This document shows positions 124 through 64,000 of a stretch of 64,000 bases of DNA, piece by piece. This DNA comes from Eledone cirrhosa. Taxonomy: Eukaryota. The translations under genes and the position numbers were made by a program. The stretch's first letter is position 1. Each line of letters starts with the position of its first letter. The notes beneath the pieces are model-generated. The model searched no databases. It saw only the letters and a program-made list of their open reading frames with translations, and was not told the origin of the DNA. The stretch is from the NCBI GenBank assembly GCA_964016885.1, contig OZ024743.1, positions 249,550,001-249,614,000 on the forward strand. Direction: 5' to 3'.

Positions 124-1659
124 AAAGAAGAACTGTATTTATGTGAATATATGTCTGTAAGTGTGTATTTTTGTAAGTGTGTCTGTGTTTGCGCATTTAT
201 ATTTATATACTCATACATATAAATGTATGCATATGCACATACACACATGCATATACACATACACGTGAGCGTGTTAAAAAAATCCTAGTAATTTACATTT
301 TAAAAGGAAACCTGCTGCTCTGTATTCCCATCACACTTCATATGTATATGTGTGTGTGTGGAAAACATTCAACATATAGGCAATGCAACTTAAAAAATGG
401 ACAAAAAACCTGTATTTTTCTCTATGTCCTTCAACATATACATAACGCAACAGTCTTCAAAAGATTTTCTCGGAAAAAAATGTATGTGTCTAACGAGCTT
501 TGACTGAAAATGCGGCAATTTCAGTGCAAGTCTGTCATCATGGAAACGTTAACTGTCTTCAATAGTATGGTGGATAATTCTAATATGCGGCCCTCATCTA
601 AATTTGGAATGTTAATGTGGCCCTTTCATGCAAAAAAGGTTGTGGAGCTTTGATGTAGTGAATTTGTGAAACAAAAACTAAACTCTTAAATGACACTTAA
701 AACATTTTAAACATCAAAATATTAAAACTTCGTAAATATATTCTCCATTCATGAGAATTTCAAAACAGCGTCATAATGTGTTTATTAGCTGTATCGGCTT
801 ATAAACAGGGTTTGGATTTTGTCCATTTCTCAGACATAAAATAGGGGTCAACTTACATTCGAGTATATACGGTAGGTCATATTTGCAATTACTACTACAT
901 CAACCACTACTGCGACAGCTAATACTACTGCGGCTGCTGCTACTGCTACTACTGCTAGTAAACTCTTCTAATAGGACATTCACTAACACTTGAAACTAAA
1001 GTAATGTAAAGTTTGTACTGGTAGCCACAGCTAATCATTTCTTACCTCTGGTTTTGTTGTCAGACAATCCTGCACAAACTGGGAGCTTTGAAAGACACAT
1101 GTATTAGTGCCATAACATCGATCTAGTGTGAAGAAAAACAACTCCTTACTGGGAAAGCAAATCTTACAACTACAGATACTGACCATTACTCCAATACCTC
1201 TATCTCTAAAACATTTACTTTATAGGGTCAAAGCCCATCTACACAGGTGAAAAAACTATATATTATCGTCTGTTTCAAGTTCCAGCAGAGAGCAGGGGAA
1301 GCACTATCCTGATGACAACCAAAGCCAGAAATGTGCATCGACATGCTTTTGCTGGAATCCGCTAGACAGTGTTAGCCATCGACCTTTCAATATTCATTGC
1401 TAGAAGGCTTTCCAAATGTTTATTTAATAAACATACTGTATATCTTTAGATATATGAAATTCACATACTTAAGTAATTTATATTTTCAACACACAAAATT
1501 TCACAATGTCATGAAAGGCTATTGGCATTATATAAAAATAATTGAGCAGTAACTAATAAAAACAAAGCACATAATCAAAGAACAGAAAAGAAAAAAAAAA
1601 AAGAAAATGGAAAGGAGAAAAAGAAAGAAGGATCAAGCAACGAATAAAGGGAGAGAGGG

Positions 1660-2560
1660 GCAGTCACTATACTCCAGTCGGAGTGCTGCCTCAACCGCAC
1701 CACATGGACAAAATGACAAAAGTGTTACTGTGGAGAATGGTTAGAAACACTTGCTGTAATAGCCAACCCACCTCATGGGGCTTCCTCCTGAAGTGGACTG
1801 CTGTCTTATGGAGAAAATCAGCAGTGTAGAAACCAAAGATGCCAGAGGTCTCGGCAGAGATCGATACAAAGAGGAAGCTGTCGGTCAGGCCCTGGTATTT
1901 GACTGCCTTTGTCTCCTTTGCATTGTGGACAATGGAGCCCAGGTTTGTGGCCAAAGTGACAAGGCTGGAGTCAGAAAACGAGTCGCTGCACATCGCCTCC
2001 CAAATTATGGATTTTTTCCCCCTCAAAAGGGAAGAGGGTTAATCTGCATTTACCATCGTCATGGCTGAAGCCAGCTGGCTCCAATTGTGATGGGAAACCG
2101 GCTGCGTTGAGGCTCATTCTGATGATATCACTCAGAGCAGTGTGACTGGGGAGCCGGCCTGCACTAAGGTGGTAGATAACAAGTGCAGACCGAACTCATT
2201 GACTTCTTCTCCACAATGGTATCTGTGTGGTTCACATGTAAAAGCCGACGCACTATGTCACTCCAATGCAAGTGCACTTCTTATCAAGAAGTGGATCAGT
2301 TGGTGAGGAAGGAACCGAATTGAGCCAAGCACCACAGTTTGGTTGCAAGGTGGAGCATAGGTTGGCAAGATGGTGTTGGTCCAAGGAAGATTCAATCCAC
2401 TTGAAGGAAGACCTGCCCCTGACGTCATCCCAGTTATGTTGGACATCGGTATATTGGGGGCGACAAGGCCTTTGTTAGTCCAATCAGCTAGAGCTGACTC
2501 CAGTTCCCAGGTCACACCGGATTCAATCATCTTGTGGAGGATCTCATTGATGAGAGTGTG
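1660..2560 (-). mobile_element. Decayed 3' region of a CRE-clade non-LTR retrotransposon (post-RT region, zinc knuckle, restriction-like endonuclease)
   Basis: Across frameshifts it reads QHNWD...QPNCGAWLNSVPSS...CEPHRYHCG...AGRLPSHTALSDIIRMSLNAAGFPSQLEPAG..DGK..LTLFP..GK.IIWEAMCSDSF...ETKAVKY..L...F..ETSGIFG...WLLQQV. This is the pattern of REL-type CRE-like elements. Confidence 0.8.
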
Positions 2561-2639
2561 GTTAGAGGAGAGGTTGGCTGGCAGTCCTGCTAGGGACTTG
2601 CCTATGGCTAACAATATTAGGCATCACAAAAAAATGTCA

Positions 2640-3049
2640 CATATCAAGCGATATCTGTGTTTGAAGCTTTTTAAGTGAGGAAAGGTTTTGCATGGGGCCA
2701 AACTAACTCTCGGAATATTGAATGCATTTGGCCAAAAAGAAGAACTGGTCTACATCAGTGGATGCAAACGAAGTTGCAGGCTTTTTATCAGAGTGACCTT
2801 CTCCGGGAGAAATGTCTTAATGAAGACTAGGAGTCTCTTCCCCCTCCCCCTCAAAAAATATTGGACCGTCGTTGACTTTCATGCGTTCCTCCAATCTTTC
2901 GCGGGTTTTGTTTTTTATCCCACAGGTGTCCAAAATCACCTTCCTCACCAAGCAAGCTTGGTGGGGTTGCCGATTTAATTGCTGATGACCCGACCATGCA
3001 CAGGTTGTACTGGGTTACATGTTACCAGTAGCATTGAAGAGCGACCTGA
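2640..3049 (-). mobile_element. Diverged homologue of the 5' ~400 nt of the 608-bp array unit
   Basis: Starts TATG|TCAGGTCGCTCTTCAATGCTACTGGTAACATGTAACCCAGTACAACCTGT and stays colinear with the array unit through ...AAAAGCTTCA..ACAG...GCTTGATAT. Confidence 0.85.
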
Positions 3050-3360
3050 CATACATACACATACATATATACATGCATACATACACATATATGCACATAT
3101 ACATACACATACATATATACATGCATACATACACATATATGCACATATACATACACACACATACATACATGCATGCATACATACATACACACACACAGAC
3201 ATACATATACATACATATATACATAAATACATGCATACATACGCATATATACACACATATATATATATATATATACATACATACTCACACATACATACAT
3301 ACATATATACATACATGCATACATACACACGCATACATACGTACATATACATACAGACAG
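3050..3360. repeat. Degenerate (CATA)n/(CA)n microsatellite
   Basis: Direct inspection. It explains the HIYT/MYVC low-complexity ORFs. Confidence 0.95.
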
Positions 3361-29200: not shown

Positions 29201-29325
29201 TGTATAACTAGAAGCATGTCATCACGATATAAGCCTCCGGTTACACCTGGTATTTTTCTATGTAGCGAATTAATTATAAATAGGCCCACAAGGTCCGTTA
29301 CCTGAGCTGAGTCTGATGATCCCAT
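26222..29325 (-). mobile_element. Penelope-like element, 5'-truncated (RT C-terminal half, GIY-YIG endonuclease, long AT-rich 3' region)
   Basis: MGSSDSAQVTDLVGL..GGLYRDD and VNFLDVTLNL (RT); YVNFNSNHP; CNCRNKSNCPLNNNCLAKNVVY...YVGST...FKFRFNNHK...CDLCIEE...CRH (GIY-YIG, 28056-28493). Extent beyond 28056 is inferred from the hammerhead and the terminal palindrome. Confidence 0.85.
26339..26403 (-). ncRNA. Minimal type I hammerhead ribozyme (partly decayed), Penelope-associated
   Basis: Minus strand: TATTTTGT-CTGATGA-AGACATACCA(loop)TGGTATCCCT-GAAA-TATGTA-TA-ATGAAATA. Stem I is 8 bp (2 GU), the CUGAUGA and GAAA cores are intact, stem III is short and near-palindromic, and stem II has 2 mismatches. 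Confidence 0.7.
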
Positions 29326-29697
29326 ACTTTATATCCATGTAGGAGAACCCCTACCGATGCGCTGAACGAGTGTGACTTTTTAGTCCAGCCAGCGACTTGA
29401 AAACTCTGGTACAAACACTACACTTATGACAATTATTGACACATAGTGTTGGGCCCATGGTACCATGTGACGACAAGTGCAGAGAGATCTCCAGATATAA
29501 AGCAATGCCTGTGCCGTGAAGCTTTTATAGTGAGCAAAGGCACTGCACAAAGCCAGTCCCACTCTCTTAACCAAGATGATATTTACCAAAAAGAAGAACA
29601 AGTCAACATCATTGGATACCATCAGGGTTGCAGGTGTTATATCAGAGTTTTCCTTCTCCTAGAATTCTGCCTTGACAAAGGCAGAATTCTAGGAGAA
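29326..29697 (-). mobile_element. Dispersed partial copy of the 608-bp array unit with a fold-back end
   Basis: Near-identical reverse complement of unit positions ~217-573; shares the 79/80-aa ORFs seen in the array. Confidence 0.95.
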
Positions 29698-43444: not shown

Positions 43445-44960
43445 TATGTATGTATGTATGTATGTATGTATGTATGTATGTATGTATGTATGTATGTATG
43501 TATGTATGTATGTATGTATGTATGTATGTATGTATGCATGCATGCATGCATGCATGCATGCATGCATGCATGCATGCATGCATGCATGCATGCATGTATG
43601 TATGTATGTATGTATGTCAGGTCACCAGTTGGTGCTACTGGTAACATGTATCCCAGTACAACCTGTCCCATGGTCGGGTCGTTGGCGACTAAACTGGCAA
43701 ACCCACCAAGGTTTCTTGGTGAGGAGGGTGACTTTGGACATCCTGCAGGACTAAAAACAAAACCTGTCAAAGGGCAAAGGAGCTCTTAAGAGTCAATGGC
43801 CATCCAAAATCACCGGGAGAGATGACCCCTTAGCTTTTGTCAAGGCAGAATTCTAGGAGAAGGAAAACTCTGATATAACACCTGCAACCCTGATGGTATC
43901 CAATGATGTTGACTTGTTCTTCTTTTTGGTAAATATCATCTTGGTTAAGAGAGTGGGACTGGCTTTGTGCAGTGCCTTTGCTCACTATAAAAGCTTCACG
44001 GCACAGGCATTGCTTTATATCTGGAGATCTCTCTGCACTTGTCGTCACATGGTACCATGGGCCCAGCACTATGTGTCAGTAATTGTCACAAGTGTAGTGT
44101 TTGTACCAGAGTTTTCAAGTCACTGGCTGGACTAAAAAGTCACACTCGTTCAGCGCATCGGTAGGGGTTCTCCTACATGGATATAAAGTAGTGGCCGTAC
44201 TCGAAAACGAGTTGGCAGCCACCATGTATGTATGTATGTATGTATGTATGTATGTATGTATGTATGTATGTATGTATGTATGTATGTATGTATGTCAGGT
44301 CACCAGTTGGTGCTACTGGTAACATGTATCCCAGTACAACCTGTCCCATGGTCGGGTCGTTGGCGACTAAACTGGCAAACCCACCAAGGTTTCTTGGTGA
44401 GGAGGGTGACTTTGGACATCCTGCAGGACTAAAAACAAAACCTGTCAAAGGGCAAAGGAGCTCTTAAGAGTCAATGGCCATCCAAAATCACCGGGAGAGA
44501 TGACCCCTTAGCCTTTGTCAAGGCAGAATTCTAGGAGAAGGAAAACTCTGATATAACACCTGCAACCCTGATGGTATCCAATGATGTTGACTTGTTCTTC
44601 TTTTTGGTAAATATCATCTTGGTTAAGAGAGTGGGACTGGCTTTGTGCAGTGCCTTTGCTCACTATAAAAGCTTCACGGCACAGGCATTGCTTTATATCT
44701 GGAGATCTCTCTGCACTTGTCGTCACATGGTACCATGGGCCCAGCACTATGTGTCAGTAATTGTCACAAGTGTAGTGTTTGTACCAGAGTTTTCAAGTCA
44801 CTGGCTGGACTAAAAAGTCACACTCGTTCAGCGCATCGGTAGGGGTTCTCCTACATGGATATAAAGTAGTGGCCGTACTCGAAAACGAGTTGGCAGCCAC
44901 CATGTATGTATGTATGTATGTATGTATGTATGTATGTATGTATGTATGTATGTATGTATG

Positions 44961-44994
<34 letters not shown>

Positions 44995-45335
44995 TGTATG
45001 TAAATATCATCTTGGTTAAGAGAGTGGGACTGGCTTTGTGCAGTGCCTTTGCTCACTATAAAAGCTTCACGACACAGGCATTGCTTTATATCTGGAGATT
45101 TCTCTGCACTTGTCGTCACATGGTACCATGGGCCTAGCGCTATGTGTCAATAATTGTCACACGTGTAGTGTTTGTACCAGAGTTTTCAAGTCGCTGGCTG
45201 GACTAAAGTCACATTCGTTCAGCGCATCGGTAGGAGTTCTCCTACATGGATATAAAGTAGTGGCCGTACTCGAAAACGAGTTGGCAGCCACCATGTATGT
45301 ATGTATGTATGTATGTATGTATGTATGTATGTATG

Positions 45336-45369
<34 letters not shown>

Positions 45370-48300
45370 TCATCTTGGTTAAGAGAGTGGGACTGGCTTT
45401 GTGCAGTGCCTTTGCTCACTATAAAAGCTTCACGACACAGGCATTGCTTTATATCTGGAGATTTCTCTGCACTTGTCGTCACATGGTACCATGGGCCTAG
45501 CGCTATGTGTCAATAATTGTCACACGTGTAGTGTTTGTACCAGAGTTTTCAAGTCGCTGGCTGGACTAAAGTCACATTCGTTCAGCGCATCGGTAGGAGT
45601 TCTCCTACATGGATATAAAGTAGTGGCCGTACTCGAAAACGAGTTGGCAGCCACCATGTATGTATGTATGTATGTATGTATGTATGTATGTATGTATGTA
45701 TGTATGTATGTATGTATGTATGTATGTATGTATGTATGTCAGATCACCAGTTGGTGCTACTGGTAACATGTATCCCAGTACAACCTGTCCCATGGTCGGG
45801 TCGTTGGCGACTAAACTGGCAAACCCACCAAGGTTTCTTGGTGAGGAGGGTGACTTTGGACATCCTGCAGGACTAAAAACAAAACCTGTCAAAGGGCAAA
45901 GGAGCTCTTAAGAGTCAATGGCCATCCAAAATCACCGGGAGAGATGACCCCTTAGCCTTTGTCAAGGCAGAATTCTAGGAGAAGGAAAACTCTGATATAA
46001 CACCTGCAACCCTGATGGTATCCAATGATGTTGACTTGTTCTTCTTTTTGGTAAATATCATCTTGGTTAAGAGAGTGGGACTGGCTTTGTGCAGTGCCTT
46101 TGCTCACTATAAAAGCTTCACGGCACAGGCATTGCTTTATATCTGGAGATCTCTCTGCACTTGTCGTCACATGGTACCATGGGCCCAGCACTATGTGTCA
46201 GTAATTGTCACAAGTGTAGTGTTTGTACCAGAGTTTTCAAGTCACTGGCTGGACTAAAAAGTCACACTCGTTCAGCGCATCGGTAGGGGTTCTCCTACAT
46301 GGATATAAAGTAGTGGCCGTACTCGAAAACGAGTTGGCAGCCACCATGTATGTATGTATGTATGTATGTATGTATGTATGTATGTATGTATGTATGTATG
46401 TCAGGTCACCAGTTGGTGCTACTGGTAACATGTATCCCAGTACAACCTGTCCCATGGTCGGGTCGTTGGCGACTAAACTGGCAAACCCACCAAGGTTTCT
46501 TGGTGAGGAGGGTGACTTTGGACATCCTGCAGGACTAAAAACAAAACCTGTCAAAGGGCAAAGGAGCTCTTAAGAGTCAATGGCCATCCAAAATCACCGG
46601 GAGAGATGACCCCTTAGCCTTTGTCAAGGCAGAATTCTAGGAGAAGGAAAACTCTGATATAACACCTGCAACCCTGATGGTATCCAATGATGTTGACTTG
46701 TTCTTCTTTTTGGTAAATATCATCTTGGTTAAGAGAGTGGGACTGGCTTTGTGCAGTGCCTTTGCTCACTATAAAAGCTTCACGGCACAGGCATTGCTTT
46801 ATATCTGGAGATCTCTCTGCACTTGTCGTCACATGGTACCATGGGCCCAGCACTATGTGTCAGTAATTGTCACAAGTGTAGTGTTTGTACCAGAGTTTTC
46901 AAGTCACTGGCTGGACTAAAAAGTCACACTCGTTCAGCGCATCGGTAGGGGTTCTCCTACATGGATATAAAGTAGTGGCCGTACTCGAAAACGAGTTGGC
47001 AGCCACCATGTATGTATGTATGTATGTATGTATGTATGTATGTATGTATGTATGTATGTATGTATGTATGTATGTATGTATGTATGTATGTATGTTATGT
47101 ATGTTATGTCAGGTCACCAGTTGGTGCTACTGGTAACATGTATCCCAGTACAACCTGTCCCATGGTCGGGTCGTTGGCGACTAAACTGGCAAACCCACCA
47201 AGGTTTCTTGGTGAGGAGGGTGACTTTGGACATCCTGCAGGACTAAAAACAAAACCTGTCAAAGGGCAAAGGAGCTCTTAAGAGTCAATGGCCATCCAAA
47301 ATCACCGGGAGAGATGACCCCTTAGCCTTTGTCAAGGCAGAATTCTAGGAGAAGGAAAACTCTGATATAACACCTGCAACCCTGATGGTATCCAATGAGG
47401 TTGACTTGTTCTTCTTTTTGGTAAATATCATCTTGGTTAAGAGAGTGGGACTGGCTTTGTGCAGTGCCTTTGCTCACTATAAAAGCTTCACGGCACAGGC
47501 ATTGCTTTATATCTGGAGATCTCTCTGCACTTGTCGTCACATGGTACCATGGGCCCAGCACTATGTGTCAGTAATTGTCACAAGTGTAGTGTTTGTACCA
47601 GAGTTTTCAAGTCACTGGCTGGACTAAAAAGTCACACTCGTTCAGCGCATCGGTAGGGGTTCTCCTACATGGATATAAAGTAGTGGCCGTACTCGAAAAC
47701 GAGTTGGCAGCCACCATGTATGTATGTATGTATGTATGTATGTATGTATGTATGTATGTATGTATGTATGTATGTATGTATGTATGTATGTATGTATGCA
47801 TGCATGCATGCATGCATGCATGCATGCATGCATGCATGCATGTATGTATGTATGTATGTATGTATGTATGTATGTCAGGTCACCAGTTGGTGCTACTGGT
47901 AACATGTATCCCAGTACAACCTGTCCCATGGTCGGGTCGTTGGCGACTAAACTGGCAAACCCACCAAGGTTTCTTGGTGAGGAGGGTGACTTTGGACATC
48001 CTGCAGGACTAAAAACAAAACCTGTCAAAGGGCAAAGGAGCTCTTAAGAGTCAATGGCCATCCAAAATCACCGGGAGAGATGACCCCTTAGCCTTTGTCA
48101 AGGCAGAATTCTAGGAGAAGGAAAACTCTGATATAACACCTGCAACCCTGATGGTATCCAATGATGTTGACTTGTTCTTCTTTTTGGTAAATATCATCTT
48201 GGTTAAGAGAGTGGGACTGGCTTTGTGCAGTGCCTTTGCTCACTATAAAAGCTTCACGGCACAGGCATTGCTTTATATCTGGAGATCTCTCTGCACTTGT

Positions 48301-49166
48301 CGTCACATGGTACCATGGGCCCAGCACTATGTGTCAGTAATTGTCACAAGTGTAGTGTTTGTACCAGAGTTTTCAAGTCACTGGCTGGACTAAAAAGTCA
48401 CACTCGTTCAGCGCATCGGTAGGGGTTCTCCTACATGGATATAAAGTAGTGGCCGTACTCGAAAACGAGTTGGCAGCCACCATGTATGTATGTATGTATG
48501 TATGTATGTATGTATGTATGTATGTCAGGTCACCAGTTGGTGCTACTGGTAACATGTATCCCAGTACAACCTGTCCCATGGTCGGGTCGTTGGCGACTAA
48601 ACTGGCAAACCCACCAAGGTTTCTTGGTGAGGAGGGTGACTTTGGACATCCTGCAGGACTAAAAACAAAACCTGTCAAAGGGCAAAGGAGCTCTTAAGAG
48701 TCAATGGCCATCCAAAATCACCGGGAGAGATGACCCCTTAGCCTTTGTCAAGGCAGAATTCTAGGAGAAGGAAAACTCTGATATAACACCTGCAACCCTG
48801 ATGGTATCCAATGATGTTGACTTGTTCTTCTTTTTGGTAAATATCATCTTGGTTAAGAGAGTGGGACTGGCTTTGTGCAGTGCCTTTGCTCACTATAAAA
48901 GCTTCACGGCACAGGCATTGCTTTATATCTGGAGATCTCTCTGCACTTGTCGTCACATGGTACCATGGGCCCAGCACTATGTGTCAGTAATTGTCACAAG
49001 TGTAGTGTTTGTACCAGAGTTTTCAAGTCACTGGCTGGACTAAAAAGTCACACTCGTTCAGCGCATCGGTAGGGGTTCTCCTACATGGATATAAAGTAGT
49101 GGCCGTACTCGAAAACGAGTTGGCAGCCACCATGTATGTATGTATGTATGTATGTATGTATGTATG

Positions 49167-49200
<34 letters not shown>

Positions 49201-49541
49201 TGTATGTAAATATCATCTTGGTTAAGAGAGTGGGACTGGCTTTGTGCAGTGCCTTTGCTCACTATAAAAGCTTCACGACACAGGCATTGCTTTATATCTG
49301 GAGATTTCTCTGCACTTGTCGTCACATGGTACCATGGGCCTAGCGCTATGTGTCAATAATTGTCACACGTGTAGTGTTTGTACCAGAGTTTTCAAGTCGC
49401 TGGCTGGACTAAAGTCACATTCGTTCAGCGCATCGGTAGGAGTTCTCCTACATGGATATAAAGTAGTGGCCGTACTCGAAAACGAGTTGGCAGCCACCAT
49501 GTATGTATGTATGTATGTATGTATGTATGTATGTATGTATG

Positions 49542-49575
<34 letters not shown>

Positions 49576-52500
49576 TCATCTTGGTTAAGAGAGTGGGACT
49601 GGCTTTGTGCAGTGCCTTTGCTCACTATAAAAGCTTCACGACACAGGCATTGCTTTATATCTGGAGATTTCTCTGCACTTGTCGTCACATGGTACCATGG
49701 GCCTAGCGCTATGTGTCAATAATTGTCACACGTGTAGTGTTTGTACCAGAGTTTTCAAGTCGCTGGCTGGACTAAAGTCACATTCGTTCAGCGCATCGGT
49801 AGGAGTTCTCCTACATGGATATAAAGTAGTGGCCGTACTCGAAAACGAGTTGGCAGCCACCATGTATGTATGTATGTATGTATGTATGTATGTATGTATG
49901 TATGTATGTATGTATGTATGTATGTATGTATGTATGTATGTATGTATGTCAGATCACCAGTTGGTGCTACTGGTAACATGTATCCCAGTACAACCTGTCC
50001 CATGGTCGGGTCGTTGGCGACTAAACTGGCAAACCCACCAAGGTTTCTTGGTGAGGAGGGTGACTTTGGACATCCTGCAGGACTAAAAACAAAACCTGTC
50101 AAAGGGCAAAGGAGCTCTTAAGAGTCAATGGCCATCCAAAATCACCGGGAGAGATGACCCCTTAGCCTTTGTCAAGGCAGAATTCTAGGAGAAGGAAAAC
50201 TCTGATATAACACCTGCAACCCTGATGGTATCCAATGATGTTGACTTGTTCTTCTTTTTGGTAAATATCATCTTGGTTAAGAGAGTGGGACTGGCTTTGT
50301 GCAGTGCCTTTGCTCACTATAAAAGCTTCACGGCACAGGCATTGCTTTATATCTGGAGATCTCTCTGCACTTGTCGTCACATGGTACCATGGGCCCAGCA
50401 CTATGTGTCAGTAATTGTCACAAGTGTAGTGTTTGTACCAGAGTTTTCAAGTCACTGGCTGGACTAAAAAGTCACACTCGTTCAGCGCATCGGTAGGGGT
50501 TCTCCTACATGGATATAAAGTAGTGGCCGTACTCGAAAACGAGTTGGCAGCCACCATGTATGTATGTATGTATGTATGTATGTATGTATGTATGTATGTA
50601 TGTATGTATGTATGTATGTATGTCAGGTCACCAGTTGGTGCTACTGGTAACATGTATCCCAGTACAACCTGTCCCATGGTCGGGTCGTTGGCGACTAAAC
50701 TGGCAAACCCACCAAGGTTTCTTGGTGAGGAGGGTGACTTTGGACATCCTGCAGGACTAAAAACAAAACCTGTCAAAGGGCAAAGGAGCTCTTAAGAGTC
50801 AATGGCCATCCAAAATCACCGGGAGAGATGACCCCTTAGCCTTTGTCAAGGCAGAATTCTAGGAGAAGGAAAACTCTGATATAACACCTGCAACCCTGAT
50901 GGTATCCAATGATGTTGACTTGTTCTTCTTTTTGGTAAATATCATCTTGGTTAAGAGAGTGGGACTGGCTTTGTGCAGTGCCTTTGCTCACTATAAAAGC
51001 TTCACGGCACAGGCATTGCTTTATATCTGGAGATCTCTCTGCACTTGTCGTCACATGGTACCATGGGCCCAGCACTATGTGTCAGTAATTGTCACAAGTG
51101 TAGTGTTTGTACCAGAGTTTTCAAGTCACTGGCTGGACTAAAAAGTCACACTCGTTCAGCGCATCGGTAGGGGTTCTCCTACATGGATATAAAGTAGTGG
51201 CCGTACTCGAAAACGAGTTGGCAGCCACCATGTATGTATGTATGTATGTATGTATGTATGTATGTATGTATGTATGTATGTATGTATGTATGTATGTATG
51301 TATGTATGTATGTATGTATGTTATGTATGTTATGTCAGGTCACCAGTTGGTGCTACTGGTAACATGTATCCCAGTACAACCTGTCCCATGGTCGGGTCGT
51401 TGGCGACTAAACTGGCAAACCCACCAAGGTTTCTTGGTGAGGAGGGTGACTTTGGACATCCTGCAGGACTAAAAACAAAACCTGTCAAAGGGCAAAGGAG
51501 CTCTTAAGAGTCAATGGCCATCCAAAATCACCGGGAGAGATGACCCCTTAGCCTTTGTCAAGGCAGAATTCTAGGAGAAGGAAAACTCTGATATAACACC
51601 TGCAACCCTGATGGTATCCAATGAGGTTGACTTGTTCTTCTTTTTGGTAAATATCATCTTGGTTAAGAGAGTGGGACTGGCTTTGTGCAGTGCCTTTGCT
51701 CACTATAAAAGCTTCACGGCACAGGCATTGCTTTATATCTGGAGATCTCTCTGCACTTGTCGTCACATGGTACCATGGGCCCAGCACTATGTGTCAGTAA
51801 TTGTCACAAGTGTAGTGTTTGTACCAGAGTTTTCAAGTCACTGGCTGGACTAAAAAGTCACACTCGTTCAGCGCATCGGTAGGGGTTCTCCTACATGGAT
51901 ATAAAGTAGTGGCCGTACTCGAAAACGAGTTGGCAGCCACCATGTATGTATGTATGTATGTATGTATGTATGTATGTATGTATGTATGTATGTATGTATG
52001 TATGTATGTATGTATGTATGTATGTATGTATGTATGTTATGTCAGGTCACCAGTTGGTGCTACTGGTAACATGTATCCCAGTACAACCTGTCCCATGGTC
52101 GGGTCGTTGGCGACTAAACTGGCAAACCCACCAAGGTTTCTTGGTGAGGAGGGTGACTTTGGACATCCTGCAGGACTAAAAACAAAACCTGTCAAAGGGC
52201 AAAGGAGCTCTTAAGACTCAATGGCCATCCAAAATCACCGGGAGAGATGACCCCTTAGCCTTTGTCAAGGCAGAATTCTAGGAGAAGGAAAACTCTGATA
52301 TAACACCTGCAACCCTGATGGTATCCAATGAGGTTGACTTGTTCTTCTTTTTGGTAAATATCATCTTGGTTAAGAGAGTGGGACTGGCTTTGTGCAGTGC
52401 CTTTGCTCACTATAAAAGCTTCACGGCACAGGCATTGCTTTATATCTGGAGATCTCTCTGCACTTGTCGTCACATGGTACCATGGGCCCAGCACTATGTG

Positions 52501-52699
52501 TCAGTAATTGTCACAAGTGTAGTGTTTGTACCAGAGTTTTCAAGTCACTGGCTGGACTAAAAAGTCACACTCGTTCAGCGCATCGGTAGGGGTTCTCCTA
52601 CATGGATATAAAGTAGTGGCCGTACTCGAAAACGAGTTGGCAGCCACCATGTATGTATGTATGTATGTATGTATGTATGTATGTATGTATGTATGTATG

Positions 52700-52733
<34 letters not shown>

Positions 52734-54477
52734 TGTATGTAAATATCATCTTGGTTAAGAGAGTGGGACTGGCTTTGTGCAGTGCCTTTGCTCACTATAA
52801 AAGCTTCACGACACAGGCATTGCTTTATATCTGGAGATTTCTCTGCACTTGTCGTCACATGGTACCATGGGCCTAGCGCTATGTGTCAATAATTGTCACA
52901 CGTGTAGTGTTTGTACCAGAGTTTTCAAGTCGCTGGCTGGACTAAAGTCACATTCGTTCAGCGCATCGGTAGGAGTTCTCCTACATGGATATAAAGTAGT
53001 GGCCGTACTCGAAAACGAGTTGGCAGCCACCATGTATGTATGTATGTATGTATGTATGTATGTATGTATGTATGTATGTATGTATGTATGTATGTATGTA
53101 TGTATGTATGTATGTATGTTATGTATGTTATGTCAGGTCACCAGTTGGTGCTACTGGTAACATGTATCCCAGTACAACCTGTCCCATGGTCGGGTCGTTG
53201 GCGACTAAACTGGCAAACCCACCAAGGTTTCTTGGTGAGGAGGGTGACTTTGGACATCCTGCAGGACTAAAAACAAAACCTGTCAAAGGGCAAAGGAGCT
53301 CTTAAGAGTCAATGGCCATCCAAAATCACCGGGAGAGATGACCCCTTAGCCTTTGTCAAGGCAGAATTCTAGGAGAAGGAAAACTCTGATATAACACCTG
53401 CAACCCTGATGGTATCCAATGAGGTTGACTTGTTCTTCTTTTTGGTAAATATCATCTTGGTTAAGAGAGTGGGACTGGCTTTGTGCAGTGCCTTTGCTCA
53501 CTATAAAAGCTTCACGGCACAGGCATTGCTTTATATCTGGAGATCTCTCTGCACTTGTCGTCACATGGTACCATGGGCCCAGCACTATGTGTCAGTAATT
53601 GTCACAAGTGTAGTGTTTGTACCAGAGTTTTCAAGTCACTGGCTGGACTAAAAAGTCACACTCGTTCAGCGCATCGGTAGGGGTTCTCCTACATGGATAT
53701 AAAGTAGTGGCCGTACTCGAAAACGAGTTGGCAGCCACCATGTATGTATGTATGTATGTATGTATGTATGTATGTATGTATGTATGTATGTATGTATGTA
53801 TGTATGTATGTATGTATGTATGTATGTTATGTCAGGTCACCAGTTGGTGCTACTGGTAACATGTATCCCAGTACAACCTGTCCCATGGTCGGGTCGTTGG
53901 CGACTAAACTGGCAAACCCACCAAGGTTTCTTGGTGAGGAGGGTGACTTTGGACATCCTGCAGGACTAAAAACAAAACCTGTCAAAGGGCAAAGGAGCTC
54001 TTAAGAGTCAATGGCCATCCAAAATCACCGGGAGAGATGACCCCTTAGCCTTTGTCAAGGCAGAATTCTAGGAGAAGGAAAACTCTGATATAACACCTGC
54101 AACCCTGATGGTATCCAATGAGGTTGACTTGTTCTTCTTTTTGGTAAATATCATCTTGGTTAAGAGAGTGGGACTGGCTTTGTGCAGTGCCTTTGCTCAC
54201 TATAAAAGCTTCACGGCACAGGCATTGCTTTATATCTGGAGATCTCTCTGCACTTGTCGTCACATGGTACCATGGGCCCAGCACTATGTGTCAGTAATTG
54301 TCACAAGTGTAGTGTTTGTACCAGAGTTTTCAAGTCACTGGCTGGACTAAAAAGTCACACTCGTTCAGCGCATCGGTAGGGGTTCTCCTACATGGATATA
54401 AAGTAGTGGCCGTACTCGAAAACGAGTTGGCAGCCACCATGTATGTATGTATGTATGTATGTATGTATGTATGTATG

Positions 54478-54511
<34 letters not shown>

Positions 54512-57500
54512 TCATCTTGGTTAAGAGAGTGGGACTGGCTTTGTGCAGTGCCTTTGCTCACTATAAAAGCTTCACGACACAGGCATTGCTTTATATCTGG
54601 AGATTTCTCTGCACTTGTCGTCACATGGTACCATGGGCCTAGCGCTATGTGTCAATAATTGTCACACGTGTAGTGTTTGTACCAGAGTTTTCAAGTCGCT
54701 GGCTGGACTAAAGTCACATTCGTTCAGCGCATCGGTAGGAGTTCTCCTACATGGATATAAAGTAGTGGCCGTACTCGAAAACGAGTTGGCAGCCACCATG
54801 TATGTATGTATGTATGTATGTATGTATGTATGTATGTATGTATGTATGTATGTATGTATGTATGTATGTATGTATGTATGTTATGTATGTTATGTCAGGT
54901 CACCAGTTGGTGCTACTGGTAACATGTATCCCAGTACAACCTGTCCCATGGTCGGGTCGTTGGCGACTAAACTGGCAAACCCACCAAGGTTTCTTGGTGA
55001 GGAGGGTGACTTTGGACATCCTGCAGGACTAAAAACAAAACCTGTCAAAGGGCAAAGGAGCTCTTAAGAGTCAATGGCCATCCAAAATCACCGGGAGAGA
55101 TGACCCCTTAGCCTTTGTCAAGGCAGAATTCTAGGAGAAGGAAAACTCTGATATAACACCTGCAACCCTGATGGTATCCAATGATGTTGACTTGTTCTTC
55201 TTTTTGGTAAATATCATCTTGGTTAAGAGAGTGGGACTGGCTTTGTGCAGTGCCTTTGCTCACTATAAAAGCTTCACGGCACAGGCATTGCTTTATATCT
55301 GGAGATCTCTCTGCACTTGTCGTCACATGGTACCATGGGCCCAGCACTATGTGTCAGTAATTGTCACAAGTGTAGTGTTTGTACCAGAGTTTTCAAGTCA
55401 CTGGCTGGACTAAAAAGTCACACTCGTTCAGCGCATCGGTAGGGGTTCTCCTACATGGATATAAAGTAGTGGCCGTACTCGAAAACGAGTTGGCAGCCAC
55501 CATGTATGTATGTATGTATGTATGTATGTATGTATGTATGTATGTATGTATGTATGTATGTATGTATGTATGTTATGTATGTTATGTCAGGTCACCAGTT
55601 GGTGCTACTGGTAACATGTATCCCAGTACAACCTGTCCCATGGTCGGGTCGTTGGCGACTAAACTGGCAAACCCACCAAGGTTTCTTGGTGAGGAGGGTG
55701 ACTTTGGACATCCTGCAGGACTAAAAACAAAACCTGTCAAAGGGCAAAGGAGCTCTTAAGAGTCAATGGCCATCCAAAATCACCGGGAGAGATGACCCCT
55801 TAGCCTTTGTCAAGGCAGAATTCTAGGAGAAGGAAAACTCTGATATAACACCTGCAACCCTGATGGTATCCAATGATGTTGACTTGTTCTTCTTTTTGGT
55901 AAATATCATCTTGGTTAAGAGAGTGGGACTGGCTTTGTGCAGTGCCTTTGCTCACTATAAAAGCTTCACGGCACAGGCATTGCTTTATATCTGGAGATCT
56001 CTCTGCACTTGTCGTCACATGGTACCATGGGCCCAGCACTATGTGTCAGTAATTGTCACAAGTGTAGTGTTTGTACCAGAGTTTTCAAGTCACTGGCTGG
56101 ACTAAAAAGTCACACTCGTTCAGCGCATCGGTAGGGGTTCTCCTACATGGATATAAAGTAGTGGCCGTACTCGAAAACGAGTTGGCAGCCACCATGTATG
56201 TATGTATGTATGTATGTATGTATGTATGTATGTATGTATGTATGTATGTATGTATGTATGTATGTATGTATGTTATGTATGTTATGTCAGGTCACCAGTT
56301 GGTGCTACTGGTAACATGTATCCCAGTACAACCTGTCCCATGGTCGGGTCGTTGGCGACTAAACTGGCAAACCCACCAAGGTTTCTTGGTGAGGAGGGTG
56401 ACTTTGGACATCCTGCAGGACTAAAAACAAAACCTGTCAAAGGGCAAAGGAGCTCTTAAGAGTCAATGGCCATCCAAAATCACCGGGAGAGATGACCCCT
56501 TAGCCTTTGTCAAGGCAGAATTCTAGGAGAAGGAAAACTCTGATATAACACCTGCAACCCTGATGGTATCCAATGATGTTGACTTGTTCTTCTTTTTGGT
56601 AAATATCATCTTGGTTAAGAGAGTGGGACTGGCTTTGTGCAGTGCCTTTGCTCACTATAAAAGCTTCACGGCACAGGCATTGCTTTATATCTGGAGATCT
56701 CTCTGCACTTGTCGTCACATGGTACCATGGGCCCAGCACTATGTGTCAGTAATTGTCACAAGTGTAGTGTTTGTACCAGAGTTTTCAAGTCACTGGCTGG
56801 ACTAAAAAGTCACACTCGTTCAGCGCATCGGTAGGGGTTCTCCTACATGGATATAAAGTAGTGGCCGTACTCGAAAACGAGTTGGCAGCCACCATGTATG
56901 TATGTATGTATGTATGTATGTATGTATGTATGTATGTATGTATGTATGTATGTATGTATGTATGTATGTATGTATGTATGTATGTTATGTATGTTATGTC
57001 AGGTCACCAGTTGGTGCTACTGGTAACATGTATCCCAGTACAACCTGTCCCATGGTCGGGTCGTTGGCGACTAAACTGGCAAACCCACCAAGGTTTCTTG
57101 GTGAGGAGGGTGACTTTGGACATCCTGCAGGACTAAAAACAAAACCTGTCAAAGGGCAAAGGAGCTCTTAAGAGTCAATGGCCATCCAAAATCACCGGGA
57201 GAGATGACCCCTTAGCCTTTGTCAAGGCAGAATTCTAGGAGAAGGAAAACTCTGATATAACACCTGCAACCCTGATGGTATCCAATGAGGTTGACTTGTT
57301 CTTCTTTTTGGTAAATATCATCTTGGTTAAGAGAGTGGGACTGGCTTTGTGCAGTGCCTTTGCTCACTATAAAAGCTTCACGGCACAGGCATTGCTTTAT
57401 ATCTGGAGATCTCTCTGCACTTGTCGTCACATGGTACCATGGGCCCAGCACTATGTGTCAGTAATTGTCACAAGTGTAGTGTTTGTACCAGAGTTTTCAA

Positions 57501-57644
57501 GTCACTGGCTGGACTAAAAAGTCACACTCGTTCAGCGCATCGGTAGGGGTTCTCCTACATGGATATAAAGTAGTGGCCGTACTCGAAAACGAGTTGGCAG
57601 CCACCATGTATGTATGTATGTATGTATGTATGTATGTATGTATG

Positions 57645-57678
<34 letters not shown>

Positions 57679-60600
57679 TGTATGTAAATATCATCTTGGT
57701 TAAGAGAGTGGGACTGGCTTTGTGCAGTGCCTTTGCTCACTATAAAAGCTTCACGACACAGGCATTGCTTTATATCTGGAGATTTCTCTGCACTTGTCGT
57801 CACATGGTACCATGGGCCTAGCGCTATGTGTCAATAATTGTCACACGTGTAGTGTTTGTACCAGAGTTTTCAAGTCGCTGGCTGGACTAAAGTCACATTC
57901 GTTCAGCGCATCGGTAGGAGTTCTCCTACATGGATATAAAGTAGTGGCCGTACTCGAAAACGAGTTGGCAGCCACCATGTATGTATGTATGTATGTATGT
58001 ATGTATGTATGTATGTATGTATGTATGTATGTATGTATGTATGTATGTATGTATGTATGTATGTATGTATGTATGTATGTATGTTATGTATGTTATGTCA
58101 GGTCACCAGTTGGTGCTACTGGTAACATGTATCCCAGTACAACCTGTCCCATGGTCGGGTCGTTGGCGACTAAACTGGCAAACCCACCAAGGTTTCTTGG
58201 TGAGGAGGGTGACTTTGGACATCCTGCAGGACTAAAAACAAAACCTGTCAAAGGGCAAAGGAGCTCTTAAGAGTCAATGGCCATCCAAAATCACCGGGAG
58301 AGATGACCCCTTAGCCTTTGTCAAGGCAGAATTCTAGGAGAAGGAAAACTCTGATATAACACCTGCAACCCTGATGGTATCCAATGATGTTGACTTGTTC
58401 TTCTTTTTGGTAAATATCATCTTGGTTAAGAGAGTGGGACTGGCTTTGTGCAGTGCCTTTGCTCACTATAAAAGCTTCACGGCACAGGCATTGCTTTATA
58501 TCTGGAGATCTCTCTGCACTTGTCGTCACATGGTACCATGGGCCCAGCACTATGTGTCAGTAATTGTCACAAGTGTAGTGTTTGTACCAGAGTTTTCAAG
58601 TCACTGGCTGGACTAAAAAGTCACACTCGTTCAGCGCATCGGTAGGGGTTCTCCTACATGGATATAAAGTAGTGGCCGTACTCGAAAACGAGTTGGCAGC
58701 CACCATGTATGTATGTATGTATGTATGTATGTATGTATGTATGTATGTATGTATGTATGTATGTATGTATGTATGTATGTATGTATGTATGTATGTATGT
58801 ATGTATGTTATGTCAGGTCACCAGTTGGTGCTACTGGTAACATGTATCCCAGTACAACCTGTCCCATGGTCGGGTCGTTGGCGACTAAACTGGCAAACCC
58901 ACCAAGGTTTCTTGGTGAGGAGGGTGACTTTGGACATCCTGCAGGACTAAAAACAAAACCTGTCAAAGGGCAAAGGAGCTCTTAAGAGTCAATGGCCATC
59001 CAAAATCACCGGGAGAGATGACCCCTTAGCCTTTGTCAAGGCAGAATTCTAGGAGAAGGAAAACTCTGATATAACACCTGCAACCCTGATGGTATCCAAT
59101 GAGGTTGACTTGTTCTTCTTTTTGGTAAATATCATCTTGGTTAAGAGAGTGGGACTGGCTTTGTGCAGTGCCTTTGCTCACTATAAAAGCTTCACGGCAC
59201 AGGCATTGCTTTATATCTGGAGATCTCTCTGCACTTGTCGTCACATGGTACCATGGGCCCAGCACTATGTGTCAGTAATTGTCACAAGTGTAGTGTTTGT
59301 ACCAGAGTTTTCAAGTCACTGGCTGGACTAAAAAGTCACACTCGTTCAGCGCATCGGTAGGGGTTCTCCTACATGGATATAAAGTAGTGGCCGTACTCGA
59401 AAACGAGTTGGCAGCCACCATGTATGTATGTATGTATGTATGTATGTATGTATGTATGTATGTATGTATGTATGTATGTATGTATGTATGTATGTATGTA
59501 TGTATGTATGTATGTATGTATGTATGTTATGTATGTTATGTCAGGTCACCAGTTGGTGCTACTGGTAACATGTATCCCAGTACAACCTGTCCCATGGTCG
59601 GGTCGTTGGCGACTAAACTGGCAAACCCACCAAGGTTTCTTGGTGAGGAGGGTGACTTTGGACATCCTGCAGGACTAAAAACAAAACCTGTCAAAGGGCA
59701 AAGGAGCTCTTAAGAGTCAATGGCCATCCAAAATCACCGGGAGAGATGACCCCTTAGCCTTTGTCAAGGCAGAATTCTAGGAGAAGGAAAACTCTGATAT
59801 AACACCTGCAACCCTGATGGTATCCAATGATGTTGACTTGTTCTTCTTTTTGGTAAATATCATCTTGGTTAAGAGAGTGGGACTGGCTTTGTGCAGTGCC
59901 TTTGCTCACTATAAAAGCTTCACGGCACAGGCATTGCTTTATATCTGGAGATCTCTCTGCACTTGTCGTCACATGGTACCATGGGCCCAGCACTATGTGT
60001 CAGTAATTGTCACAAGTGTAGTGTTTGTACCAGAGTTTTCAAGTCACTGGCTGGACTAAAAAGTCACACTCGTTCAGCGCATCGGTAGGGGTTCTCCTAC
60101 ATGGATATAAAGTAGTGGCCGTACTCGAAAACGAGTTGGCAGCCACCATGTATGTATGTATGTATGTATGTATGTATGTATGTATGTATGTATGTATGTA
60201 TGTATGTATGTATGTATGTATGTATGTATGTATGTTATGTATGTTATGTCAGGTCACCAGTTGGTGCTACTGGTAACATGTATCCCAGTACAACCTGTCC
60301 CATGGTCGGGTCGTTGGCGACTAAACTGGCAAACCCACCAAGGTTTCTTGGTGAGGAGGGTGACTTTGGACATCCTGCAGGACTAAAAACAAAACCTGTC
60401 AAAGGGCAAAGGAGCTCTTAAGAGTCAATGGCCATCCAAAATCACCGGGAGAGATGACCCCTTAGCCTTTGTCAAGGCAGAATTCTAGGAGAAGGAAAAC
60501 TCTGATATAACACCTGCAACCCTGATGGTATCCAATGATGTTGACTTGTTCTTCTTTTTGGTAAATATCATCTTGGTTAAGAGAGTGGGACTGGCTTTGT

Positions 60601-63600
60601 GCAGTGCCTTTGCTCACTATAAAAGCTTCACGGCACAGGCATTGCTTTATATCTGGAGATCTCTCTGCACTTGTCGTCACATGGTACCATGGGCCCAGCA
60701 CTATGTGTCAGTAATTGTCACAAGTGTAGTGTTTGTACCAGAGTTTTCAAGTCACTGGCTGGACTAAAAAGTCACACTCGTTCAGCGCATCGGTAGGGGT
60801 TCTCCTACATGGATATAAAGTAGTGGCCGTACTCGAAAACGAGTTGGCAGCCACCATGTATGTATGTATGTATGTATGTATGTATGTATGTATGTATGTA
60901 TGTATGTATGTATGTATGTATGTATGTATGTATGTTATGTATGTTATGTATGTTATGTCAGGTCACCAGTTGGTGCTACTGGTAACATGTATCCCAGTAC
61001 AACCTGTCCCATGGTCGGGTCGTTGGCGACTAAACTGGCAAACCCACCAAGGTTTCTTGGTGAGGAGGGTGACTTTGGACATCCTGCAGGACTAAAAACA
61101 AAACCTGTCAAAGGGCAAAGGAGCTCTTAAGAGTCAATGGCCATCCAAAATCACCGGGAGAGATGACCCCTTAGCCTTTGTCAAGGCAGAATTCTAGGAG
61201 AAGGAAAACTCTGATATAACACCTGCAACCCTGATGGTATCCAATGATGTTGACTTGTTCTTCTTTTTGGTAAATATCATCTTGGTTAAGAGAGTGGGAC
61301 TGGCTTTGTGCAGTGCCTTTGCTCACTATAAAAGCTTCACGGCACAGGCATTGCTTTATATCTGGAGATCTCTCTGCACTTGTCGTCACATGGTACCATG
61401 GGCCCAGCACTATGTGTCAGTAATTGTCACAAGTGTAGTGTTTGTACCAGAGTTTTCAAGTCACTGGCTGGACTAAAAAGTCACACTCGTTCAGCGCATC
61501 GGTAGGGGTTCTCCTACATGGATATAAAGTAGTGGCCGTACTCGAAAACGAGTTGGCAGCCACCATGTATGTATGTATGTATGTATGTATGTATGTATGT
61601 ATGTATGTATGTATGTATGTATGTATGTTATGTATGTTATGTCAGGTCACCAGTTGGTGCTACTGGTAACATGTATCCCAGTACAACCTGTCCCATGGTC
61701 GGGTCGTTGGCGACTAAACTGGCAAACCCACCAAGGTTTCTTGGTGAGGAGGGTGACTTTGGACATCCTGCAGGACTAAAAACAAAACCTGTCAAAGGGC
61801 AAAGGAGCTCTTAAGAGTCAATGGCCATCCAAAATCACCGGGAGAGATGACCCCTTAGCCTTTGTCAAGGCAGAATTCTAGGAGAAGGAAAACTCTGATA
61901 TAACACCTGCAACCCTGATGGTATCCAATGATGTTGACTTGTTCTTCTTTTTGGTAAATATCATCTTGGTTAAGAGAGTGGGACTGGCTTTGTGCAGTGC
62001 CTTTGCTCACTATAAAAGCTTCACGGCACAGGCATTGCTTTATATCTGGAGATCTCTCTGCACTTGTCGTCACATGGTACCATGGGCCCAGCACTATGTG
62101 TCAGTAATTGTCACAAGTGTAGTGTTTGTACCAGAGTTTTCAAGTCACTGGCTGGACTAAAAAGTCACACTCGTTCAGCGCATCGGTAGGGGTTCTCCTA
62201 CATGGATATAAAGTAGTGGCCGTACTCGAAAACGAGTTGGCAGCCACCATGTATGTATGTATGTATGTATGTATGTATGTATGTATGTATGTATGTATGT
62301 ATGTATGTATGTATGTATGTATGTATGTATGTTATGTATGTTATGTCAGGTCACCAGTTGGTGCTACTGGTAACATGTATCCCAGTACAACCTGTCCCAT
62401 GGTCGGGTCGTTGGCGACTAAACTGGCAAACCCACCAAGGTTTCTTGGTGAGGAGGGTGACTTTGGACATCCTGCAGGACTAAAAACAAAACCTGTCAAA
62501 GGGCAAAGGAGCTCTTAAGAGTCAATGGCCATCCAAAATCACCGGGAGAGATGACCCCTTAGCCTTTGTCAAGGCAGAATTCTAGGAGAAGGAAAACTCT
62601 GATATAACACCTGCAACCCTGATGGTATCCAATGATGTTGACTTGTTCTTCTTTTTGGTAAATATCATCTTGGTTAAGAGAGTGGGACTGGCTTTGTGCA
62701 GTGCCTTTGCTCACTATAAAAGCTTCACGGCACAGGCATTGCTTTATATCTGGAGATCTCTCTGCACTTGTCGTCACATGGTACCATGGGCCCAGCACTA
62801 TGTGTCAGTAATTGTCACAAGTGTAGTGTTTGTACCAGAGTTTTCAAGTCACTGGCTGGACTAAAAAGTCACACTCGTTCAGCGCATCGGTAGGGGTTCT
62901 CCTACATGGATATAAAGTAGTGGCCGTACTCGAAAACGAGTTGGCAGCCACCATGTATGTATGTATGTATGTATGTATGTATGTATGTATGTATGTATGT
63001 ATGTATGTATGTATGTATGTATGTATGTATGTATGTATGTATGTATGTTATGTATGTTATGTCAGGTCACCAGTTGGTGCTACTGGTAACATGTATCCCA
63101 GTACAACCTGTCCCATGGTCGGGTCGTTGGCGACTAAACTGGCAAACCCACCAAGGTTTCTTGGTGAGGAGGGTGACTTTGGACATCCTGCAGGACTAAA
63201 AACAAAACCTGTCAAAGGGCAAAGGAGCTCTTAAGAGTCAATGGCCATCCAAAATCACCGGGAGAGATGACCCCTTAGCCTTTGTCAAGGCAGAATTCTA
63301 GGAGAAGGAAAACTCTGATATAACACCTGCAACCCTGATGGTATCCAATGATGTTGACTTGTTCTTCTTTTTGGTAAATATCATCTTGGTTAAGAGAGTG
63401 GGACTGGCTTTGTGCAGTGCCTTTGCTCACTATAAAAGCTTCACGGCACAGGCATTGCTTTATATCTGGAGATCTCTCTGCACTTGTCGTCACATGGTAC
63501 CATGGGCCCAGCACTATGTGTCAGTAATTGTCACAAGTGTAGTGTTTGTACCAGAGTTTTCAAGTCACTGGCTGGACTAAAAAGTCACACTCGTTCAGCG

Positions 63601-64000
63601 CATCGGTAGGGGTTCTCCTACATGGATATAAAGTAGTGGCCGTACTCGAAAACGAGTTGGCAGCCACCATGTATGTATGTATGTATGTATGTATGTATGT
63701 ATGTATGTATGTATGTATGTATGTATGTATGTATGTATGTATGTATGTATGTATGTATGTATGTTATGTATGTTATGTATGTTATGTCAGGTCACCAGTT
63801 GGTGCTACTGGTAACATGTATCCCAGTACAACCTGTCCCATGGTCGGGTCGTTGGCGACTAAACTGGCAAACCCACCAAGGTTTCTTGGTGAGGAGGGTG
63901 ACTTTGGACATCCTGCAGGACTAAAAACAAAACCTGTCAAAGGGCAAAGGAGCTCTTAAGAGTCAATGGCCATCCAAAATCACCGGGAGAGATGACCCCT
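43445..64000 (+). repeat. Retroelement-derived tandem array: 608-bp unit A (25 full plus 1 partial) and ~294-bp 5'-truncated unit B (7 copies), separated by variable (TATG)n; runs off the window
   Basis: A starts at 43617, 44295, 45739, 46401, 47109, 47875, 48525 ... 63062, 63787. B starts at ~45000, 45363, 49206, 49569, 52739, 54505 and 57684. Copies of each type differ by only a few SNPs. Confidence 0.97.
43617..44224 (+). mobile_element. Representative unit A: bipartite non-autonomous non-LTR retroelement (LINE-like 5' leader plus LINE 3' end), probably RTE-related
   Basis: Hairpin-rich leader; ORF remnant MGPALCVSNCHKCSVCTRVFKSLAGLKSHTRSAHR* at 44057-44164; short 3' UTR with stem-loop GTGGC..ACTCG AAAA CGAGT..GCCAC (44191-44222); microsatellite tail. 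Dispersed relatives lie at 2640-3049 and 29326-29697. Confidence 0.75.

Follow-up and report, generated by a model that had tools for sequence, protein, structure and literature searches.

An RTE-clade 5' leader joined to a decayed CRE-like endonuclease half next to a TATG-type microsatellite in Eledone cirrhosa

Results

The stretch of DNA analyzed here (the window; 64,000 nt of Eledone cirrhosa contig OZ024743.1) carries a composite retroelement on its reverse strand. Read 5' to 3', it consists of a leader (2638..3049) belonging to a very high-copy family, the rest of that family's part, likely a zinc-finger remnant (2583..2637), a 5'-truncated and decayed CRE-like C-terminal half (1691..2584), and an end hairpin (1659..1690). 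A degenerate (TATG)n-type microsatellite (about 3049-3359 (-)) lies directly upstream of the leader and is likely its insertion target or an older tail. The forward strand at 43445..64000 is occupied by a head-to-tail array of 33 related units, with (ATGT)n behind every unit. Of these units, 25 are full length (606-607 nt), 7 measure 291 nt, and 1 is cut off by the end of the window. The 3' end of the array unit comprises a C2H2 finger (zf-C2H2, E 5e-5), a hairpin, and the (ATGT)n tail.

A reading made from the sequence alone had identified the leader (3049-2640 (-)) as a diverged homologue of the first ~400 nt of the array unit, and the alignments confirm this. Homology covers nt 1-407 of the 607-nt unit, and 3033-2638 (-) aligns to nt 17-407 at 71.1% identity over 402 columns (BLASTN, E 1e-46; also 301/395 aligned columns). 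The first letters of the leader, TCAGGTC at 3049 (-), directly adjoin the degenerate TATG run, as that reading had also stated. The array unit contains at 43852-43873 a 22-nt exact match to the RTE part of OegopSINE and Sepioth-SINE1 (supplement of PMC5786205), within that half of the source's Ceph domain which stems from an RTE. This conserved RTE 5'-untranslated-region (5'-UTR) domain is still recognizable, in decayed form, at 2804-2788 (-) in the leader. Compared by eye, a second stretch of the leader family resembles the 5' UTRs of RTE-3_AMi, RTE-2_Croc, and IdioSINE2.

A 25-nt pattern taken from where the leader begins picked out eight metagenome loci (L001 to L008). In three of them (L003, L004, and L007), all of one family, the 5' motif heads one open reading frame (ORF) that encodes an APE endonuclease and a reverse transcriptase (RT) (Pfam Exo_endo_phos plus RVT_1); homology of the leader to these three spans only the first 40-55 nt. 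The same family has a short derivative in two parts, L002. The ORF of L004 is presumably that of an RTE, a label that we take from domain order and motifs. None of the eight loci matched any of 150 CRE-like proteins. CAGGTC is unchanged in 7/7 aligned leaders, five of which come from other organisms and lack a TATG flank; it is therefore the element's own 5' end and no target signature. By its motifs and by the ORFs that its relatives head, the leader is an RTE-clade 5' UTR. A word-index protein search found no autonomous parent with this leader from this genome.

The leader 5' motif (3049-2990 (-), 43617-43680 (+), and L001 to L008) is nearly invariant when compared with that of unrelated metagenome hosts. 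It has a conserved fold, a pair of nested stems, to which a loop pseudoknot may by eye be added; it matches no Rfam family and is a candidate internal promoter or unlisted RNA element. Rfam searches gave no ribozyme family at the RTE 5' end at E<=10 and none at gathering score in three loci, the matches obtained being only microsatellite driven or below threshold; the leader was also compared by eye with HDV-like, twister, and pistol consensus, and these readings were dropped. Six RTE relatives (L001, L002, L004, L005, L007, and L008) begin after short (GGTCA)n-like repeats, and the TCAGGTC start seen here may thus have come down, as a fixed relic, from a repeat of this kind.

The downstream half contains the CRE-like knuckle and restriction-like endonuclease (REL) region that had been reported from the sequence. 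It consists of a post-RT linker, a CCHC knuckle (2248-2168), the REL region, and a stop (1693-1691). A profile built from 38 long homologues has matches, shifting between frames, at 2584-2471, 2456-2019, 2248-2168 (the knuckle), and 2014-1706, the best with i-E 1e-24, and phmmer with the CRE-region query yielded 245 matches at E<=0.001, the best at 44% identity. One of the 20 matches looked up, Octopus sinensis XP_029656802.1, is 41% identical over 80 amino acids, and CRE types have been noted in cephalopods (PMC10294476). In the homologues, the CCHC knuckle and a PD-(D/E)xK endonuclease lie downstream of the RT: RVT_1 is present in 12 of 15 scanned long homologues, and among 37 long homologues the knuckle occurs in 24 and the RPDG motif in 33. 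In the window copy these motifs are decayed, and the REL is dead, with frameshifts, a stop, and the RPDG motif gone. The best PDB matches of one homologue (P0018) are R2 proteins. A profile search found no RT or N-terminal CRE sequence between the leader and the REL region, Pfam gave no informative match on five CRE-region frames, and there were no matches in word-index protein searches or in scans of viral and prokaryote collections. The name CRE is our assumption from motifs; the analysis itself supports an R2-group architecture, and the RT is missing from the locus. Among the 15 scanned homologues, seven (P0028, P0038, P0062, P0067, P0110, P0119, and P0120) contain a C-terminal ubiquitin hydrolase (UCH) domain, and four contain PHD fingers.

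The join between the two parts (2580..2586 (-)) was placed farther downstream than the position near 2640 first suggested. Nucleotides from about 2600 to 2583 (-) match array nt 500-517 at 15/18 positions, the three differences all being synonymous, and both encode KSLAGL, part of the C2H2 finger (here about 2600-2582). This match was reached in 11/5000 shuffles, and 0.005 such matches are expected from real window sequence; the match is short, a second 15/18 chance match sits inside the CRE part, and MAFFT instead favors a colinear alignment of the KSLAGL stretch to the ATG region of the unit. CRE homology starts at 2584, in the same Leu codon with which KSLAGL ends, giving a join at ~2583|2582 with a 2-nt overlap, in frame, within the left copy of a 7-nt direct repeat. 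Leader-family depth is ~2000 at 2620-2628 versus 320-380 just inside the CRE part, and a 2-kb contig aligns over 2590-2779 and then runs for 917 nt unlike CRE; 2638-2583 still belongs to the leader family. Judging from the KSLAGL match, the CRE piece probably broke, at 2583|2582, a bipartite RTE unit of the array type. The claim that the CRE part stands instead of the zinc-finger end is, by the same match, probably wrong. The join region (2603-2580 (-)) folds as an 8-bp hairpin, which shares its final 7 nt with the 3' hairpin and may have favored the breakpoint.

Read contigs indicate that the join is single copy. One unitig spans 1620-2612 at a depth of 8-11, versus 7-11 for unique flank, in all three runs (X1 to X3) of one sample, perhaps the source sample, and there is accordingly no near-identical second copy of the join. 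An assembly artefact is ruled out by this unitig, which shows one difference across the three runs of that possibly original sample. The unitig stops at 2612 in each run, adjoining the first wholly RTE-side 31-mer (2613-2583), which would be the expected branch point; a heterozygous base at 2613 would give the same end. By rough sums, leader-family depth is 460-29,000 times unique and that of the CRE part 5-62 times unique (mean 32, or ~30 relatives), with no fall toward the join; the former exceeds the latter 15- to 900-fold. No second leader/CRE junction occurs among the best 15 of 259 joints and the 8 pieces listed per contig run. With coverage of the best 15 of 259 joints and 24 of 27,326 pieces, the single-copy result refers to near-identical joins. 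Among the matches listed, long contigs of CRE relatives align over only 170-240 nt at ~80%.

At the 3' end, a hairpin is present at 1690-1659 as had been described, but whether it is the CRE element's own is uncertain. Its fold is no better than that of shuffles (z 0.30; 111/200 shuffles as good), and its core resembles RTE 3' ends. A motif drawn from the ends of the array unit and IdioSINE2 occurs in 32 units of the array and, beyond it, just once in 43.4 kb, at 1684-1659; it was reached in 36/20000 shuffles, having been defined after the hairpin had been seen. The alignment of 1697-1652 to the array 3' UTR was reached in 1 and 22 of 1000 shuffles; of 1214 real segments from the window, the target among them, 9 and 59 scored as high or higher. 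The hairpin lies roughly where one is expected 23 nt after KSLAGL. Some 9-14 relatives cover position 1694, and depth in 1621-1689 is above that expected if relatives ended at 1659, which suggests that these relatives continue through the hairpin. It would then be either the CRE family's own 3' UTR or part of a sandwich that is itself multicopy.

The direct repeat (381/20000 shuffles, P ~0.02) has its left copy at 2586-2580 and its right copy in the last 7 nt of the hairpin, at 1665-1659. A unique junction together with a target site duplication (TSD) of the CRE piece had been named beforehand as the mark of a chance nested insertion; the join is unique at near identity, and a 7-nt repeat flanks the piece. 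CRE elements produce TSDs (PMC3636483), and the repeat may be one. It also overlaps CRE codons, and the unitig break suggests that its last 3 nt are CRE derived, so that it is possibly not a TSD. Of the array unit's RTE 3' end, which has a hairpin and a microsatellite tail, the locus shows the finger remnant and the ambiguous hairpin; after the CRE piece neither an RTE remainder nor an (ATGT)n or TATG tail was detectable, and 1200-1700 contains no TATG dimer. The outer flanks of the whole element share no TSD, only one AT-rich 8-mer far from the ends. Another repeat family at 1207-1620, at ~100-600 times unique depth, abuts the 3' side of the element. A long-gap global alignment of the element to the array unit was uninformative, giving scattered chance matches.

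The TATG fit beside the leader is 13/16 nt, against a background of 0.64% of positions, and TATG runs precede the two leader starts of the window that are intact and independent of each other (3049 and 43617). None of the seven metagenome loci with the CAGGTC start (L003 is without it) has a TATG flank (scores 5-9 of 16). Among the best 24 of 3433 loose ends, 84 contigs (X3) and 2112 reads (X4) have (TACA)n behind 3059, and copies truncated near 3012 are likewise (TACA)n flanked in 1861 reads, counts that array copies may inflate; mixed AT-rich flanks lie behind 3033. The proposed TATG preference is supported as a bias, not as strict specificity.

Discussion

Several lines of evidence favor an old RTE copy that was broken once by a CRE-like 3' half, through nesting or recombination, a reading to which we assign a probability of roughly 0.55. 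First, the evidence for an RTE leader and the KSLAGL match place RTE-family sequence up to the join. Second, the join lies in a single-copy unitig. Third, there are the 7-nt repeat around the CRE piece and the TATG flanks. The order and single occurrence of the events are what we infer: a nonautonomous bipartite RTE copy would first have inserted at a TATG repeat; a 5'-truncated CRE copy would later have broken it once, by nested insertion or by recombination at the 2-nt overlap; both parts would then have decayed, and the rest of the RTE unit would have been lost. The undetectable RTE remainder and (ATGT)n tail mean that this account needs that further loss, and by our estimate the chance that a ~30-copy family hits the RTE family is a priori ~1% or less. 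The likeness of the end hairpin to RTE 3' ends, the ~9-14 relatives covering 1694, the doubt over the repeat as a TSD, the shortness of the KSLAGL match, and the alignment preferred by MAFFT also count against it.

The RTE-like end hairpin and the ~10 relatives that reach the CRE stop keep alive a second, tentative reading, in which the locus is a copy of a small, old nonautonomous hybrid family. Its members would consist of the 5' UTR of an RTE with what is left of the finger, a body acquired from CRE, and a 3' end of either RTE type or CRE origin; they would go back to a single template jump or recombination, after which tens of copies were made. The locus could then be a once-mobile hybrid, in which the promoter leader and 3' signal of an APE-type RTE enclosed a captured REL-type CRE knuckle-endonuclease half, with the frame kept across a Leu codon, and which RTE machinery multiplied to some tens of copies; we regard this, too, as possible but doubtful. 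The hairpin motif directly after the CRE stop, the alignment of 1697-1652 to the array 3' UTR, relatives that probably extend into the hairpin, and a CRE depth that does not drop toward the join all fit such a family, for which the R2/R1 hybrid SIDEs are a precedent (PMC3414825). Against it stand the lack of a second junction among the best 15 of 259 joints and the 8 pieces listed per contig run, the real window segments that match or beat the 3'-UTR alignment, a motif set after the fact, the absent microsatellite tail, and the short alignments of long CRE-relative contigs.

Two further explanations are unlikely. A CRE family might target the finger-coding sequence of the RTE family and insert repeatedly and independently at this site. 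REL clades are mostly target specific, with transposons among their listed targets (PMC4640811), and such targeting would account for both the improbable nesting and the 7-nt repeat; only a single insertion is seen, however, and no RTE remainder follows the CRE end. Equally improbable is a one-off template jump from CRE RNA to RTE RNA during reverse transcription, with the product inserted whole. The shared orientation, a 5' partner complete to its 5' end, and the 2-nt overlap recall Alu/L1 and U6/L1 chimeras (PMC13174262), but the outer flanks share no TSD, and the TATG 5' flank fits an RTE-led insertion, yet the 3' flank lacks TATG. A related suggestion of the sequence-only reading, that the leader is a module swapped between 3' ends by template switching, is possible, and tail changes of RTE 5' UTRs are known (PMC5786205); against it are the single-copy depth, the listed joints with no second junction, and the leader's own RTE 3' half, which seems to be partly kept.

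That a (TATG)n-specific REL element is the true parent of the array, with the leader as its 5' end, is very improbable: leader and REL region are contiguous here and the TATG flank is real, but the leader motifs are of RTE 5'-UTR type, APE-RT ORFs follow homologous leaders and a REL protein follows none of the eight, leader-family depth far exceeds CRE depth, and no RT or N-terminal CRE sequence intervenes. No REL element with TATG at both junctions was found at the locus, the 5' TATG junction belonging to the RTE leader. With an RTE leader and an RTE-like 3' end, the array unit is best read as a bipartite nonautonomous RTE, and the REL parent is rejected.

Pairing of an RTE tail with its target accounts better for the TATG flank than a REL endonuclease does. 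Such pairing has been proposed for the microsatellite tails of RTEs (PMC6007223), while RTE insertion elsewhere has been described as not sequence specific (PMC2887409). An (ATGT)n RNA tail could pair with the nicked target, which would place units into TATG repeats and into one another's tails and so produce both the bias and the array.

Comparable composites are known. Bipartite RTE LINEs and RTE 5'-UTR modules in SINEs, among them RTE-N2_Lch, WALLSI3, and the Ceph-SINEs, exchange tails, and RTE-like 5'-UTR pieces are reported even in Ingi-3_AC and R4-1_ADi (PMC5786205). As that source describes them, bipartite RTEs combine a 5' UTR carrying the same conserved motifs with a short RTE 3' end. 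In contrast to them and to Ceph-SINEs, the locus has no tRNA head and has a 0.9-kb CRE coding piece in, or replacing, its 3' part, and it is seen as one join. The Drosophila R2/R1 hybrid SIDEs likewise set the 5' end of one LINE clade on the 3' part of another, by a proposed recombination or template jump, but they are multicopy, site specific, and TSD flanked, and they take the 5' end from a REL clade and the 3' end from an APE clade, the reverse of the order here (PMC3414825). The Alu/L1 and U6/L1 chimeras also join a complete, sense-oriented 5' partner to a 5'-truncated LINE and, unlike the locus, have outer TSDs (PMC13174262). The Octopus vulgaris element RTE-2_OV, an RTE with a C2H2 finger, a ~600-nt 5' UTR, and a microsatellite at its 3' end, is by its description the kind of parent that the array unit needs (PMC9115989). 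No RTE/CRE hybrid was found in open-access text, Repbase and Dfam aside. CRE-clade REL elements (CRE1, SLACS, and MoTeR) share with the homologues of the 3' piece a CCHC knuckle and PD-(D/E)xK endonuclease after the RT; the locus itself differs in its missing RT and broken ORF, its clade name coming from motifs.

As a one-off, the locus is an ordinary nested retroelement, and it shows that the family derived from an RTE is an old one, whose association with TATG goes back further than the young array. If the join proved multicopy, it would be the RTE/CRE counterpart of the R2/R1 hybrid SIDEs, and RTE cis signals would be able to carry REL-clade cargo.

Other elements in the window

A near-complete RTE-type ORF of a different family (33273-30230 (-); tblastn E 7e-63) is without the leader and was on that ground ruled out as parent of the leader family. 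A dispersed, 5'-truncated copy of the array unit (29325..29682 (-)), 98.6% identical and not preceded by a TATG run in the same phase, is young; it sits next to another repeat's (GAT)n tail, has an 18-nt foldback at its 5' end, and is cut on its 3' side by an AT-rich ORF that by eye is Penelope-like. The array unit itself retains a short ORF running in frame from ATG to finger. Within the array, 606-nt units (99.5-99.8% identical) and truncated units 291 nt long, which belong to a 96.9% variant, are mixed in a repeating pattern that suggests block duplication after insertion.
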